9,372 bases of DNA from UHGV virus genome UHGV-1330501. The stretch is one strand, 5' to 3'. The notes beneath the pieces were generated by a model. It searched no databases. It was not told the origin of the DNA and saw nothing but the letters and a program-made list of their open reading frames with translations. Numbering within the stretch: the stretch's first letter is position 1; every line of letters starts with the position of its first letter. The translations under genes were made by a program, and so were the position numbers. Below, piece after piece: positions 4,872-9,372 of the stretch. Origin of the DNA: a virus.

Positions 4872-5114
4872 TCAAACCGCTTTTGAAGAGAATTTTTTGA
4901 AAATACGAATGGCAAGCCCAGCGCCAACCACAGCAACAACAACAGGCCATACTTTACCAATGAGATCATTTGCCTGAGTCAACAAAGCATCCATTGCCTG
5001 ACCTGCATAATCAGTACCACCTGTAGCGCCTTCAGCCGCAAAAGAACTTGCAGAAATAAAAAGCGCAGTTGAAGCCAAAGCAATTTTATATTTAACAGTA
5101 GACAGAATTTTCAT
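4872..5114 (-). CDS. VIII: Filamentous phage gene VIII protein (pVIII), major coat protein precursor.
   Basis: Signal peptide ending SFA followed by AEG; acidic N-terminus, hydrophobic core and basic C-terminus (KKFSSKAV) parallel M13 pVIII (SFA-AEGDD ... KKFTSKAS); GGAG SD upstream. Confidence 0.88.
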
Positions 5115-5133
5115 AGGAATAACTCCATTAAGG

Positions 5134-5229
5134 TTACATTAATCGGTCAGAAAATGATTTAAATGAACCGACCGCATAGAAAAGGGCAAAACCAAAGGTA
5201 TAAGCCCCGAAGAAATAAACGATATACAT
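5134..5229 (-). CDS. IX: Putative gene IX protein (pIX), 31-aa hydrophobic minor coat protein (MYIVYFFGAYTFGFALFYAVGSFKSFSDRLM).
   Basis: Small ORF whose ATG overlaps the gene VII stop (TAATG); size, hydrophobicity and position match Ff gene IX. Confidence 0.6.
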   Translation of the reverse strand: MYIVYFFGAYTFGFALFYAVGSFKSFSDRLM

Positions 5230-5315
5230 TAACGAAAGACCCCCGCAGTAATCGCGCCGAGGCCAAAAGAAATAACGATGCCAGACGCTATCAAAATTTG
5301 AATAACATCGTCCAT
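5229..5315 (-). CDS. VII: Putative gene VII protein (pVII), 28-aa hydrophobic minor coat protein (MDDVIQILIASGIVISFGLGAITAGVFR).
   Basis: ATG two nt after the gene V-position stop; composition resembles M13 pVII (MEQVADFDTIYQAMIQISVVLCFALGIIAGGQR). Not in the ORF track because of its size. Confidence 0.6.
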   Translation of the reverse strand: MDDVIQILIASGIVISFGLGAITAGVFR

Positions 5316-5646: not shown

Positions 5647-5961
5647 TTAATGCCAGCTACTGGCGTGCGAAATACGGTTGTAATCGAAAATAAAACCTTT
5701 CTCATAAATCCATAAGGGGATTTCCGCTGGCTTGGCTTCCAGCGTTCTTATTAGCGGAACAACGTTATTAGAGTCTGGTGAATCACAATAGAAATTAATA
5801 TCGATACCGAACGAAAGCAATTCTCTTCTATGGCGATAAAAAGTGTTATGAGGTAACATTTCTTTCATGTTAGCCCCTTGTTTCCAAAGTAAATAAGTTG
5901 ACTGTATTTTTCTTGGCAGTTTCGTTATTTTTTCATCACTTAAAATAGCATTCTGATTCAT
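5647..5961 (-). CDS. X: Putative gene X protein (pX): in-frame internal start within gene II (MNQNAILSDE..., about 104 aa).
   Basis: Internal ATG at 5961 preceded by GGGAG SD about 8 nt upstream; analogous to Ff pX, the C-terminal third of pII. An alternative internal ATG at 6009 lacks a clear SD. Confidence 0.4.
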   Translation of the reverse strand: MNQNAILSDEKITKLPRKIQSTYLLWKQGANMKEMLPHNTFYRHRRELLSFGIDINFYCDSPDSNNVVPLIRTLEAKPAEIPLWIYEKGFIFDYNRISHASSWH

Positions 5962-6699
5962 TTCTATTCTCCCTACATATTCAGAGAATAATTGACGTGG
6001 TGTTTTCATATTCCAGTTAGCGCCAAGCGTTAAATTTAAATCAATAAGCTCAGTTGTTCTTAATGTTAATTCAATACGTAATTTATCTTTCGTCCAGTCC
6101 AGTAACCCGGCTCGTACAAACTCTTCGGCTATCTGGTGCCCTTTTTTACCAGAAACGTGTTCATCATATTTTGAATAAAATTTCAGACTCCATCGACGGG
6201 AGTTTTTACCTAAATAAACTGTACCGCCTTTCCCACATGCGCGACCATGGCGTGTTTTAGCTTTAAATTCGGCGGCATAAAGCCATGATCTGACATTTTC
6301 CAGCGTAGATAATGAATACATGTAATTAATGTCAATACGTGAAATTTTATACTGACCTGCCATAACGGCTTTATAAGACGCTAAATCATGAGGAATATTC
6401 AATAAGGATAAAATCCTGGCATAGACCGTCAACATGAGCCCTTGTATATCATCCGACCCAACAACAGAATGCCCCTGCAGAAACTTGGAAGGATTACCAT
6501 CAATGTACAAATGTGTCGCTTTACCTTCGCCATTAGATCCTATCGATCGTACTTTCATCGTTGCTTCATGCGAGCCGCGAACAGTCAGTCGCTTAACGGT
6601 TTCCCACTCAATTGCACCGTCAGCATCAACGCTGACAACACTCCCCGCCGGAAGCGGTTTGTGTGTGCAAGGGAAAATCCCGGTAAGCCAATCGATCAC
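5647..6699 (-). CDS. II: Filamentous phage gene II protein (pII), rolling-circle replication initiator. Start placed at GTG 6699 (protein would begin MIDWLTG...); the ORF is open upstream to GTG 6741.
   Basis: Large ORF at the head of the minus-strand gene order; GAGGA SD 8 nt upstream of GTG 6699 and resemblance of MIDW... to the M13 pII N-terminus MIDMLVL. Confidence 0.8.
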   Translation of the reverse strand: MIDWLTGIFPCTHKPLPAGSVVSVDADGAIEWETVKRLTVRGSHEATMKVRSIGSNGEGKATHLYIDGNPSKFLQGHSVVGSDDIQGLMLTVYARILSLLNIPHDLASYKAVMAGQYKISRIDINYMYSLSTLENVRSWLYAAEFKAKTRHGRACGKGGTVYLGKNSRRWSLKFYSKYDEHVSGKKGHQIAEEFVRAGLLDWTKDKLRIELTLRTTELIDLNLTLGANWNMKTPRQLFSEYVGRIEMNQNAILSDEKITKLPRKIQSTYLLWKQGANMKEMLPHNTFYRHRRELLSFGIDINFYCDSPDSNNVVPLIRTLEAKPAEIPLWIYEKGFIFDYNRISHASSWH

Positions 6700-6868
6700 G
6701 AATAAATCCTCAAAATTGCAAAAATGACGACTTACTAACACATGAGTTCAGTAGTTCATTAGTGTTTAAACATTACACCAGTGAGCTAGTGAGTTCAAGA
6801 GGCTTGGATGATATGAGTTCATGAGCATGTATACTCACTTCAAATATTGCATTGAACGAGCGTAAAAA
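6700..6868. promoter_or_regulatory. Divergent intergenic control region between gene II (minus) and the plus-strand accessory operon, with three direct copies of TGAGTTCA (6743..6750, 6790..6797, 6814..6821); candidate operators, promoters and/or plus-strand origin.
   Basis: Direct repeats read from the sequence; location between divergently oriented genes. The first copy lies upstream of the preferred gene II start at 6699. Confidence 0.45.
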
Positions 6869-7051
6869 ATGGCAAAGCGCACGACTTATAACGTGACGGA
6901 AGAAAGAAAAATGAAACTAGAACGACTGGCTATAAATGCCAGTGTAAAACTAGGAAAAACAATTACATGGACAGAGATTTTAGGTTATCTGATTGATAAC
7001 TACTCTAAAGATGCAGCAGAAGATCTCATGTCTGCCAAACAAAAGGATTAA
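6869..7051 (+). CDS. Small basic protein (60 aa), candidate transcriptional regulator (possibly ribbon-helix-helix-like) read divergently from gene II.
   Basis: ATG at 6869 and stop TAA at 7049..7051; a short N-terminal stretch (TTYNVT) followed by charged helical sequence. Function inferred from position and size only. Confidence 0.5.
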   Translation: MAKRTTYNVTEERKMKLERLAINASVKLGKTITWTEILGYLIDNYSKDAAEDLMSAKQKD

Positions 7052-7068
7052 GTACCACGAATGGTACA

Positions 7069-7107
7069 AACGTGCAGTATTACCTACACTGCACGTTCTT
7101 TATTGTG
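7069..7107 (+). terminator. Hairpin (10-bp stem AACGTGCAGT / ACTGCACGTT, 9-nt loop) followed by CTTTATTGTG; candidate intrinsic terminator or attenuator between the regulator and the membrane-protein gene.
   Basis: Perfect inverted repeat plus T-rich tail read directly from the sequence. Confidence 0.45.
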
Positions 7108-7139
7108 CGGATTTTGAACAGCAACAAAGGATCAAAAGG

Positions 7140-7562
7140 ATGAGTAGAAATAACGAAACAAGCGGCGTTGAACTGGTTGTTGTAGGCGTATTTGCTTTCT
7201 GTCTGGCAGTTGTTGCCTGGCTAATGAAAACTTTCGATGTTGAATGGCAAACAGCACTGGAAACTGCGCCTGGCCTGATAGTCTGGCTGCTTGTTGTCGG
7301 TGCGGGGATCTTTTTCGGGATCAAAATGGAAACTGGCCTTATTCGCTGGGGTGCTCCACTGGCGATCGCCCTTCTGATTCCGGTATTCAAGCCAATTCTT
7401 AAGGAAGCTGCCGGAGTTCGTGAAACGGGTGGGCTGGTTTTCGATGATATGGTTTCGTGGTATGGAACTGGCTGGGGAATGTCTCTGATGTTCTTCGGGA
7501 TTCTTATTGTCGGATATGGCCTGCTTTATTGGTGGCACAGAAGAAATTCATATTACTGGTAA
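7140..7562 (+). CDS. Hypothetical integral membrane protein (140 aa, about four hydrophobic segments).
   Basis: Internal ATG at 7140 with AAGGA upstream; four hydrophobic stretches. The longer ORF from 6993 overlaps the regulator gene and the hairpin and is judged an artefact. Confidence 0.6.
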   Translation: MSRNNETSGVELVVVGVFAFCLAVVAWLMKTFDVEWQTALETAPGLIVWLLVVGAGIFFGIKMETGLIRWGAPLAIALLIPVFKPILKEAAGVRETGGLVFDDMVSWYGTGWGMSLMFFGILIVGYGLLYWWHRRNSYYW

Positions 7563-7590
7563 TCAATAAAACGTAGAAGAGAGGAAACAT

Positions 7591-7866
7591 ATGAAACTGA
7601 ATCCTGAGAAATACAATAGAAACATTACCCTGCTATGTCCTGTGTGCGGAAATACAGAGATGGAACACGAGGAAGAGTCTGAAGTCGTTAGATGTGTAGG
7701 CTGCGGGAAAGAATTTACTAATGATGAGTTAATCCAAGAAAACGGGGTGAGTATTGACGCTCATGTAGATGAAATAAAAGAAGAGTTAACAAAAGACATT
7801 CAAAAACAGTTTAACGACATGCTCAAAAAGGCATTTAAGGGAAGTAAGAATATAAGGATCAAATAA
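7591..7866 (+). CDS. Hypothetical zinc-ribbon protein (91 aa; CPVC-x14-CVGC followed by an acidic/basic helical tail).
   Basis: ATG at 7591 with GAGGAAA SD; two CxxC pairs; AT-rich composition distinct from the phage core; stop overlaps the next start (TAATG). Confidence 0.65.
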   Translation: MKLNPEKYNRNITLLCPVCGNTEMEHEEESEVVRCVGCGKEFTNDELIQENGVSIDAHVDEIKEELTKDIQKQFNDMLKKAFKGSKNIRIK

Positions 7867-8345
7867 TGACAACAAGTGATGCCATCGCTTTAGCTGCGCT
7901 TGTAGTATCGATTTACACTATCATATCGTCAGAAATGAAATCGAGAAAAAGCGATAGAGAACAAAAGGTTATAAAGGATGAGCAAGACAGGTTACGTAAG
8001 TTGCTTCTGGAAAAAGAAACAAAGTCAGCAATTAATGAGATGAAAGCTGAGCTTGGTGCTCGCCTCGTAAAAATAGCCAAAAACAACTATAGGCTCAAGA
8101 TATTTAATAGAGGGAGAGTTGAGGCTAAAAATATAGAGATTCATTTCCCTGATAACGATGGAAATGAATATCTTTCAATGCATGATGTAGAAGATAAATT
8201 TCCATATGAGGTATTACACCCGCAACATGGAATTGAAATTTTAGCGGGAATAAGCTTTGGAAGTAAAACTAAATACCGAATAAAACTCATATGGGATGAC
8301 AATTATAAAAGAAGAAATGAAGAGGAGTTTTTCATTTCTATATAA
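7866..8345 (+). CDS. Hypothetical membrane-anchored protein (159 aa): N-terminal hydrophobic helix, charged coiled-coil-like segment, C-terminal globular domain.
   Basis: ATG overlapping the upstream stop; N-terminal AIALAALVVSIYTIISS; AT-rich; followed by a strong terminator. Confidence 0.65.
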   Translation: MTTSDAIALAALVVSIYTIISSEMKSRKSDREQKVIKDEQDRLRKLLLEKETKSAINEMKAELGARLVKIAKNNYRLKIFNRGRVEAKNIEIHFPDNDGNEYLSMHDVEDKFPYEVLHPQHGIEILAGISFGSKTKYRIKLIWDDNYKRRNEEEFFISI

Positions 8346-8385
8346 ATTGGTTCGCACAATGACGTTATGCTAAAGAGGCCGCTGC

Positions 8386-8422
8386 GGGATTCGATTTTCG
8401 CAGCGGCCTTTTCAACATAACG
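8386..8422 (+). terminator. Intrinsic terminator: 11-bp GC-rich stem (AGGCCGCTGCG / CGCAGCGGCCT), 12-nt loop, then TTTT.
   Basis: Perfect inverted repeat 8386..8396 / 8409..8419 followed by a T-tract, 40 nt after the 159-aa gene stop. Confidence 0.75.
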
Positions 8423-8454
8423 AGTCGTACATTATGCGCACCAAAATTATAGAG
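8400..8454. repeat. Right copy of the 55-bp direct repeat, carrying the dif-like element (XerC arm TTATGCGCACC at 8442..8452); putative right attachment site of the prophage.
   Basis: Exact identity with 1..55; overlaps the loop and 3-prime half of the terminator. Confidence 0.85.
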
Positions 8455-8484
8455 GCTCAATGCTAATGTTCTATTTGTGGCTCA

Positions 8485-9372
8485 TTGGAGGCACTCAGTA
8501 TAATCCGGGAGCACTACCGTGATTTTGGCCCCACGCTGGCGCGGGAAAAGCTGGAGGAAGTTCACGGTCTGGTCCTTGGAAAGGAAACCATCCGACGTCT
8601 CATGATAAACGCGGGACTCTGGATCCCCCGCAGACAACGCGCACCGAAAATTCATCAGCCTCGTTACCGGCGTCCTTGTACTGGCGAGCTGATACAAATT
8701 GATGGCTGCGACCACCACTGAATACGGTAAACCGATGATCCTCTACAGCGATAAAGCCAGCGTATTCAGAGTCAATAATAAGCACGCCACCACCGGTCTC
8801 GGCGATACCCAGTTTGCCAGGGCCATGCGCTGCCTTAATATTACTCCTTTGTGTGCTGAAACCAGCCAGGCAAAAGGCCGCGTTGAACGTGCTCATTTGA
8901 CACTTCAGGACCGACTCGTTAAGGAGCTCAGGCTTAAGGGGATCTGTACAATAGAAGCGGCCAATGCATTTGCAGAAGAATACATGGCGGATTATAACCG
9001 GCGCTTTGCCAAAGAACCCTTGCATGATTTTAACGCGTACCGGCCGCTGGCATTAGACGATGACCTTGATGCAGAATTTACCTGGCGAGAGCCTCGCCGG
9101 GTATCAAAAAATCTGACTGTACAATACGATAAAATGCTCTATCTGATTGAGGACAACGAGTACAGTCGAAGAGCCATCGGCAAGTATATTGATGTCTGGC
9201 ATTATCCTGACGGACATAAGGAGCTGCGACTAAATGGCGTGCTGCTACCCTACTCCACCTATGACCGGCTTTCTGAGGTTGAGCCCGTCGCCATTGTAGA
9301 TAACAAGAGACTTGGCCATGTGTTGGATGTTGCCCGTCAGGTCCAGAGAAAACGGGACAATAATCGCTCACT
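8485..9372 (+). pseudogene. DDE-type transposase of an insertion sequence (retroviral-integrase-like catalytic core), interrupted by a frameshift near 8719 and running off the window end; family not determined.
   Basis: Frame 1 (TTG start 8485) ends ...IQIDGCDHH at TGA 8719..8721; frame 2 continues from 8720 with EYGKPMILYSDKASVF ... AKGRVERAHLTLQDRL (DDE-like D, D, E motifs), open to 9372. Confidence 0.7.

Follow-up and report, generated by a model that had tools for sequence, protein, structure and literature searches.

When a hairpin lies between two genes read in the same direction, does it act on the transcript that crosses it or on the DNA that carries it? The question arises at positions 6700-7562 of the virus genome UHGV-1330501, a stretch of 9,372 nt (the window), where a 60-aa regulator gene is read away from the replication gene (gene II), a perfect hairpin with a T-rich tail follows, and a gene for a membrane protein comes next. 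A sequence-only reading had suggested, from the architecture, that the 60-aa protein is a repressor controlling lysogeny and that the hairpin could be an attenuator terminating most transcripts after the regulator. Our analysis agrees on the repressor and assigns the hairpin differently. We read the region as an immunity cassette, the core of a plus-strand replication origin and a mobile cargo gene, with a probability of roughly 0.6 for the three together. Within it, the 46 bp at 7052-7097 are probably an origin core cognate to the replication initiator (Rep, the product of gene II), the predicted equivalent of Ig-1 in phage CTXphi.

The hairpin described earlier exists as stated. Its arms, AACGTGCAGT (7069-7078) and ACTGCACGTT (7088-7097), are 100% complementary over a perfect 10-bp stem in which 5 of the 10 pairs are G-C, and they enclose a 9-nt loop; the tail that follows is CTTTATTG. 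We call this hairpin HP2 (7069-7097, listed as repeat I5) and assign it to the minus strand of the window, which is the viral strand and on which the loop reads GTAGGTAAT. A second hairpin had been overlooked: HP1 (7052-7067, minus strand), GTACCA-CGAA-TGGTAC, fills the gap between the stop codon of the regulator and HP2. Folded as RNA, the plus strand at 7040-7145 yields a z-score of -3.05, with 1 of 200 shuffled sequences folding as well, and the DNA fold of the viral strand yields -5.70, with none of 200. The single-stranded viral DNA at 7040-7115 folds into a 29-nt hairpin, a 1-nt spacer and a 16-nt hairpin, with a folding free energy (ΔG) of -15.8. A search of the region against Rfam returned chance-level matches only.

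Every related phage has such a module 0-25 nt past its regulator gene, whichever type of regulator it encodes, and the modules are of two types. Type A, as in the window, consists of HP1 in two compensated alleles (GTACCA/TGGTAC, and in sister phages GTCTCA/TGAGAC, with two base pairs changed in a compensatory way) followed by a near-invariant HP2, whose stem and loop differ at a single loop position across 14 distinct type A contexts. Type B has three hairpins: an HP1 with at least six fully compensated stems (double changes in 5 of 7 pairs; 91.7% of cells paired), an invariant HP2 (GTTCGGG-TGTCACAGAAC-CCCGAAC) and a small HP3. Part of the locus set was gathered by exact HP2 patterns, so that the invariance of HP2 there is by construction, and it also holds in the loci found through protein alone. 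When the mismatches in HP1 variants were sorted into G-T and C-A to tell which strand is folded, two events favored the viral strand and one favored the other.

The type of module goes with the type of Rep. The window's Rep (350 aa, gene II, 5647-6699, minus strand; Pfam PF05144 at 8.8e-70 and PF05155 at 2.1e-29; annotated in RefSeq record NZ_CP138217 as a 1,053-nt coding sequence) belongs to what we call clade A, which is about 26% identical to clade B. Type A modules accompany clade A in 47 of 47 loci and type B modules accompany clade B in 30 of 30; these counts are redundant and correspond to 24 and 26 distinct combinations. Both regulator types occur in both Rep backgrounds, and the same regulator subtype is followed by module A in clade A phages and by module B in clade B phages. 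The regulator cassette lies between Rep and the hairpins, and therefore the outer parts stay matched while the middle is exchanged. The hairpin pair thus forms a module in its own right: exchange of the regulator, or of the gene downstream, leaves its pairing with the Rep clade intact.

The same association extends to replicons far removed from these phages. A family of Acinetobacter baumannii plasmids of 2,024 bp encodes a full-length relative of the window's Rep (40% identity along the whole protein, E 3e-86), together with a 74-aa open reading frame (ORF) and an unannotated CopG-like ORF of the ribbon-helix-helix (RHH) class. In plasmid pC9_10 (L097, NZ_CP113452; 8 similar records of 2,024-2,025 bp), the non-coding part contains ATACCA-CT-ATGGTAC-AA-ATGTGCAGT-ATTACTAAC-ACTGCACA, which is HP1 followed by HP2. 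The HP1 core there is TACCA-CTA-TGGTA; in HP2 the basal C-G pair has become T-A, a compensated change, and the loop is conserved as ATTACTAAC. On the rep strand of the plasmid, the hairpins precede rep by about 400 nt, compared to 353 nt in the window. In clade B, the Alteromonas phage phiAFP1 encodes a Rep 51% identical to that of clade B and a 56-aa member of the regulator family, followed by a type B module in which 25 of the 25 nt of HP2 are kept.

Two further features of pC9_10 were seen. Its CopG-like ORF (MPTQKPRIALTVPDEINQTLDRLYELTGTPKSKLIVEMLEQY...) spans the start of the record, upstream of rep and on the same strand, and positions 247-263 hold a partial second copy of the HP1/HP2 junction, GTGGTACAAATGTGCAG.

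Such distant matches also bear on the possibility that the hairpin pair is a cis element for a host enzyme, either a minus-strand origin or a packaging signal. All inoviruses and rolling-circle plasmids need a minus-strand origin, such origins are hairpins, the module is stable as single-stranded DNA, and its occurrence in a 2-kb plasmid would suit a single-strand origin. An element that depends on the host should follow the host, however, and these do not: type A links E. coli phages to Acinetobacter plasmids through one Rep clade, type B links E. coli, Alteromonas and Vibrio phages through the other, and both types occur in E. coli phages. Because the hairpins follow Rep across bacterial orders, we take Rep to be their partner. 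Sizes point the same way, as the hairpins annotated for the minus origin of phage IKe measure 53 and 29 nt and its morphogenetic signal 56 nt, while the hairpins here match in size the 27- and 18-nt pair of the IKe viral-strand origin; moreover, the window contains at 397-441 a longer, imperfect hairpin that is the better candidate for a packaging signal. We consider a host-enzyme element quite improbable.

Type B modules also match 439 plasmid records, mostly conjugative IncF plasmids. A role as a conjugative single-strand priming signal was considered and rejected: the copies inspected are pieces of inovirus DNA, and in one of them HP1 is cut short where an insertion sequence (IS) ends. These plasmid records are therefore not independent evidence.

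Can the locus still be an attenuator? HP2 begins 18 nt past the stop codon of the regulator, its RNA stem has a ΔG of -10 to -13 kcal/mol, and 7 of the next 10 bases are T. The segment beyond it (7098-7139, plus strand) consists of the T-rich tail, a semi-conserved TTGTGCG-ATTTTGAAC and the ribosome-binding site of the membrane gene. Tails of type A modules are mostly moderately T-rich, with variants among close relatives such as TTCTGGATT, TTCCAGATTT and TTTTAAATT and T-scores of 1.9-4.0. No promoter-like site was found by the promoter scan between the hairpins and the membrane gene, so that any impediment to RNA polymerase in this interval would set the ratio of the two products.

Against termination as the main function, a consensus terminator scan did not call HP2, because its loop is 9 nt and the scan allows at most 8. 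A discriminant of the d'Aubenton-Carafa type gave HP2 -16 with an 8-bp stem and -37 with a 10-bp stem, compared to -2.6 for the terminator that this phage has after its coat gene. The discriminant was originally calibrated with other energy parameters, and only the comparison between values is meaningful. A terminator would not need the sequence of its loop to be conserved, as it is here. The pC9_10 copy has neither a T-rich tail nor a gene end upstream, type B modules occupy the same slot with no T tract on the regulator strand, and the module follows the Rep clade rather than the regulator. The proposal that HP2 and its tail mainly meter read-through into the membrane gene is thus not supported, and we regard it as unlikely. 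The hairpins may lower read-through somewhat, as a side effect.

Termination on the opposite strand must also be weighed. The hairpins could mainly end the transcripts of the viral-strand structural operon, sparing the regulator from antisense RNA and gene II from polymerases that have come round the circle. Type B offers a case for this: on the viral strand, a clear T tract comes after its HP1 in most contexts (as in ACCGTGG-TTTC-CCACGGT-ATTTTTC), and its discriminants run from -22 to +8, comparable to the control value of -2.6 (L010 is an exception at -63). In the IKe record, too, the origin hairpins are marked as potential terminators. In the window, however, the type A HP1 is weak on this strand (ΔG -5.6, discriminant -40), and a viral-strand terminator would leave both the invariance of HP2 and its occurrence in pC9_10 unexplained. 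As the main function, this appears very improbable; such a terminator could coexist with an origin and does not compete with that reading. The type B HP1 with its T tract does look like a reasonable viral-strand terminator, which would shield the regulator from antisense transcription.

An origin core that partners Rep finds its closest counterpart in the filamentous phages M13, f1 (the Ff group) and IKe, whose replication initiators belong to the same family as the window's (PF05144/PF05155; 24-28% identity to IKe gpII, over local segments) and which carry two adjacent viral-strand hairpins upstream of gene II. The M13 origin has a 27-nt hairpin D and then a 17-19-nt hairpin E, 0-1 nt apart, with a ΔG of -14.5 and a z-score of -5.0. 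The IKe record shows a 27-nt and an 18-nt hairpin that are 1 nt apart and annotated 'viral-strand origin', the same spacing as between HP2 and HP1. Between M13 and IKe, the stem of hairpin D is kept and that of E is changed by compensated substitutions; HP2 and HP1 behave alike. We accordingly read HP2 as the counterpart of D, the Rep recognition and nick hairpin, and HP1, from its folding and compensatory changes, as the counterpart of E, which in Ff is the palindrome bound by pII. The viral-strand arms of HP1, TGTACCA/TGGTACT, resemble the E arms TGTTCCA/TGGAACA of M13 and f1, those of IKe being TTGCA/TGCAA. The two systems differ in that an antisense regulator gene takes the place of the A+T-rich enhancer region of Ff, and in that Ff and IKe, unlike the window phage, have no repressor.

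Several points weigh against an origin next to an immunity cassette. The Ff pII protein cleaves at GTTCTTT^AATA (PMC11962056), a sequence that is absent from the viral-strand loop of HP2, GTAGGTAAT. The type B loop, GTTCTGTGACA, agrees with this site at 8 of 11 positions, searches elsewhere in the window gave no convincing copy of the Ff nick motif on the viral strand, and any nick position within HP2 is a guess. Small rolling-circle plasmids also need a minus-strand origin, and the plasmid match alone cannot tell plus from minus; we call a plus-strand origin because the hairpins track Rep and resemble D and E. Rep cannot be reading the stem sequence of HP1, since these stems differ between type B Reps that are 95-96% identical (in type A such differences are confounded with regulator type), and HP1 is therefore read as structure rather than sequence. 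With only two Rep clades and two module types, few independent lineages stand behind the perfect association; the replicons from Acinetobacter and Alteromonas deepen each clade and bring no new ones. Four clade A loci (L043, L047, L066 and L068, IMG/VR contigs) carry a second, complete module of type B, immediately past the end of the coding sequence for the 140-aa membrane protein and about 518 nt beyond the type A module; it may have arrived with this cargo gene. Both modules start 0-25 nt from a stop codon, where terminators sit. Lastly, the 60-aa protein reaches the threshold of no curated RHH family.

One Ff-like nick site was found on the plus strand and rejected. The sequence CACGTTCTTTATTGTG (7091-7106) has 11 consecutive bases in common with the M13 origin. 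It lies on the strand opposite to the structural genes, and it varies (GTTCTGGATT, GTTCCAGATTT, GTTTTAAATT) among phages whose Reps are 96-98% identical. Its likeness to the M13 pII site is taken to be a coincidence or a by-product of the T-rich tail.

The layout of the whole region has its model in CTXphi. The RS2 region of this Vibrio cholerae phage has the same order and orientation: the origin (Ig-1), the repressor gene (rstR) read away from the replication gene, the control region (ig-2) and the replication gene (rstA). Ig-1, the neighbor of rstR, is where RstA nicks, and RstA with a pair of Ig-1 copies suffices for rolling-circle replication in E. coli (PMC8265649); a literature search for the CTX nick site found none. 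The repressor and the control region likewise form a variable immunity cassette between the conserved origin and the replication gene, and both phages form tandem prophages at dif with two inverted Xer sites. Ig-1 itself has no sequence similarity to HP1 or HP2 and is not significantly structured as a whole (z-score -0.68). Unlike CTXphi, the window phage has three cargo genes between the origin and the attachment site. The Yersinia pestis phage YpfPhi and CUS-1 of E. coli O18:K1:H7, also tandem filamentous prophages at dif, have the same gene layout as the window; a 2014 review of YpfPhi is silent on where the origin lies (PMC4266046).

The second part of the reading concerns the regulator. 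The ORF lies at 6869-7051 on the plus strand, divergent from gene II, as the sequence-only reading stated, and its conservation in Enterobacterales at 75-100% identity indicates a real gene. The protein had been described as basic, which applies to its DNA-binding half only: the overall isoelectric point (pI) is 9.0 and that of the N-terminal 35 residues is 10.3, whereas the C-terminal 25 residues have a pI of 4.4. It belongs to PHROG 2503, and a profile search collected 65 clusters at the 50% identity level; searches of Pfam, NCBIfam and PADLOC gave no match.

An AlphaFold (AF2) monomer model was built from an alignment of 60 relatives drawn from these clusters. It is confident (pLDDT, the predicted local distance difference test, of 95), with residues 1-10 extended, a helix at 11-28, a 5-residue turn and a second helix at 34-59. 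Most of its top matches among solved structures are RHH proteins, and of the two folds suggested by the sequence-only reading, RHH and helix-turn-helix (HTH), the prediction thus selects the former. The RHH fold is a strand-helix-helix unit of about 45 residues, whose N-terminal strand forms only in the dimer; RHH dimers place the resulting two-stranded sheet in the major groove at repeated operator subsites. At the level of sequence profiles the matches are sub-threshold: ParG in 5 of the 60 relatives (best E 0.055) and RHH_3 in 1, and in a profile search of the PDB, TTHA0139 at E 0.036 and ParG at E 0.32. The predicted topology and the basic N-terminal strand are those of RHH repressors such as Arc, Mnt, CopG, omega, ParG, the N-terminal domain of TraM and RHH antitoxins, which also have short tandem repeats in their target regions, as here. 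The second helix is long in comparison to theirs.

Homology leads to the same assignment. In a translated search of phage records, the 60-aa protein was 40.7% identical to the 'environmental RstR' of CTXphi and pre-CTX (95% of the query covered, E 4e-6 to 6e-6), which its record annotates as the repressor of rstA. Vibrio phage VAI1, through its 'RstR-like regulator', and phage If1, through an ORF that is unannotated and lies in its major intergenic region, also gave matches. The environmental allele is a true homologue, and the comparison holds for this minor allele only; the classical El Tor RstR is a larger HTH protein. Eight alleles of rstR repress their own ig-2 promoters in an allele-specific manner (PMC11509585). 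In YpfPhi, the gene next to rep, YPO2273, has been described as an RstR homologue whose regulatory role is not demonstrated (PMC4266046), and we infer from its position that the 60-aa gene is its counterpart. A gene that adjoins rep and is transcribed away from it, with a control region between, was present in all related phages examined except If1, where an IS intervenes. Many sister phages have a 150-aa HTH_3 (XRE-type) protein in this slot instead.

The control region between the two genes (6700-6868, 169 bp, repeat family D1; equivalent to ig-2 of CTXphi) contains three exact copies of TGAGTTCA, at 6743-6750, 6790-6797 and 6814-6821, each with a degenerate copy beside it. The whole window has 4 exact copies, and 3 of them fall within a 79-bp stretch of this region. 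When the control region was shuffled 20,000 times, an 8-mer occurred three times or more in 95 shuffles. The sole promoter-like site that the promoter scan found on the plus strand at 6500-8500 lies here, ATGATA-16-TATACT (6808-6835; a consensus match only), with the third copy of TGAGTTCA in its spacer; it would serve the regulator operon. For gene II we propose a promoter on the minus strand, TTGAAC-17-TAATGT (6798-6770), overlapping the second repeat; it was read by eye and not called by the scan. We read the repeats as putative operators of the 60-aa protein.

Comparison among relatives points to the same pairing of repeat and regulator. All regulators whose N-terminal strand has the form KR[TAM]TYNVTE have 2-3 copies of TGAGTTCA upstream, in both Rep clades; L012 (Providencia) and L029 share the KR[TA]TYNVTE subtype and the TGAGTTCA cluster with the window and have a clade B Rep. 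With regulators of the KRTTMAI[TV]AE type, the upstream repeats are GCATGTA/ATGCATG, and with the Vibrio RstR homologues they are GCATGC. The operator motif goes with the beta-strand subtype of the regulator and not with the rest of the phage. As the repeats track the regulator, and as an HTH_3 protein can replace it in the same slot, the unit behaves as an immunity cassette, with the TGAGTTCA-type cassette present in both Rep backgrounds. Together, the predicted RHH fold, the homology to an RstR allele, the co-varying repeats and the XRE-type exchange give good support to the earlier proposal of a lysogeny regulator, and the 60-aa gene very likely encodes the phage repressor.

Several side observations concern regulators in other phages. 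If1, a classical phage supposed to be non-temperate, carries its unannotated regulator homologue (63-67 aa, 58% identical) in the 'major intergenic region' (NC_001954, about 5101-5301, minus strand), followed by a type B hairpin module. An IS200/IS605 element, with a Y1 transposase (PF01797, 1.2e-27) and 'ORF348', which is TnpB (OrfB_IS605, 4.7e-33), separates this homologue from gene II. In the If1-like contigs L031 and L032, the place upstream of the regulator that IS sequence occupies in If1 contains ATACATG repeats. In Klebsiella spallanzanii (L003, 5733-5804), the region of the HTH regulator has a masked run of N and a partial duplication, and in L073 the junction of rep and the HTH regulator is duplicated.

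From the fold prediction, homologies, covariation and module associations, we infer a scheme for DNA binding, repression, nicking and co-transcription. The RHH repressor, presumably as a dimer or higher oligomer, would bind the TGAGTTCA repeats in the 169-bp region and shut both the gene II promoter and its own, and in this way lysogeny and immunity would be maintained. The origin would act on the viral strand (the minus strand of the window): Rep would recognize HP2 through its sequence and nick it in the loop, with HP1 as an adjoining structural or binding palindrome, and rolling-circle synthesis would run from one copy of the origin to the next in the tandem prophage. The membrane cargo gene would be read from the regulator promoter across the origin, and hence in the lysogen.

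This scheme could be extended in two ways, which we consider jointly and regard as a long shot. First, the origin might double as a regulatory gate. Transcription of the cargo would then cross HP1 and HP2, and either binding and nicking by Rep or extrusion of the hairpins in the supercoiled replicative form would switch the cargo according to the state of replication. Second, the additional type B module might let a co-resident clade B Rep mobilize a clade A phage, which would amount to cross-parasitism between inovirus lineages.

The third component is the cargo. The membrane gene (7140-7562, plus strand, ATG at 7140) encodes 140 aa, and the four hydrophobic segments given by the sequence-only reading were recovered, three clearly and one at the borderline. 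The protein belongs to PHROG 4174, is kept down to 51% identity and had no match in Pfam, NCBIfam or PADLOC. Its gene is mobile: it is found after a type A or a type B module and behind either type of regulator; in Yersinia enterocolitica an extra ORF precedes it, and in the Mixta chromosome it stands by itself. Since it lacks a promoter-like site of its own in the scan, it is probably expressed by read-through, and transcription across the origin, to judge from this arrangement, probably serves this gene and its two downstream neighbors in the lysogen. Partial protection from superinfection has been reported for YpfPhi (PMC4266046). A role in superinfection exclusion or host fitness is our guess, from that report and the expression context only.

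The two following genes (7591-8345) belong to PHROGs 4852 and 6723, both of unknown function. The first encodes a 91-aa zinc-ribbon protein of the ECs_2282 family (7591-7866, plus strand; NCBIfam NF047912, 3.6e-18) with a weak PADLOC match to the candidate system PDC-S64 (4.3e-7), and the second (7866-8345, plus strand) a protein of 159 aa whose N terminus is hydrophobic and which weakly matches a holin PHROG.

The reading places these elements in one complete filamentous prophage, a CUS-1/YpfPhi-like inovirus of E. coli integrated at dif. The window holds a single copy, 8,390 bp from junction to junction, and about 930 bp of insertion sequence. Its minus strand encodes gene II (Rep), gene V, the coat genes, a Zot-type gene I and the secretin. 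The region studied here is 100% identical to that of a tandem prophage adjoining hipA in E. coli 20Y000092, a location that we take, from the K-12 map, to be that of dif, and the region was present in 150 of 5,426 complete E. coli genomes. The attachment region (8346-8445), read by eye, contains two inverted dif-like XerC/D sites, GGTTCGCACAATGACGTTATGCTAAAG and AACATAACGAGTCGTACATTATGCGCACC; between them lies a strong GC-rich hairpin, GGCCGCTGCG...CGCAGCGGCC, with TTTTC after it. The sites were judged against the E. coli dif sequence, and a search of the window for that sequence with up to 3 mismatches gave no match. The second site recurs at 1-55, which defines the phage unit of 8,390 bp. 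Two inverted sites, likened to those of CTXphi, have been described at the ends of YpfPhi and CUS-1 (PMC4266046), and the arrangement in the window agrees.

Extra-intestinal E. coli, Salmonella, Klebsiella and the pandemic lineage of plague all harbor CUS-1/YpfPhi-like prophages. For these phages, the analysis provides concrete assignments: a predicted RHH repressor with the operator word TGAGTTCA, a candidate 46-bp origin core and a cargo set probably read from the repressor promoter. It describes two modules that reassort independently and are interleaved as in CTXphi, one for immunity (regulator and operators) and one for replication (Rep and origin). Seen in this way, heteroimmune variants become easier to type, and it becomes easier to predict which prophage arrays can still make phage. 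The arrangement is already known from CTXphi and brings no new principle; the re-annotation is useful and the biology ordinary.

Two minor features lie toward the ends of the window. The hairpin at 397-441 is 45 nt long, with 20-nt arms that are 85% complementary and a 5-nt loop; it lies between the genes for a 77-aa and a 102-aa protein, downstream of the secretin gene, and is a candidate packaging signal or terminator. The right flank (8446-9372) does not correspond to the hipA side of dif; it matches, at 97-98% identity, an IS-like element known from IncF plasmids, and the ORFs of that element have no more than weak matches to transposase HTH domains. On IncF plasmids (L100, 1723-2728), this element abuts the type B module that is truncated inside HP1, and an association of the IS with inovirus ends or hairpins is possible.

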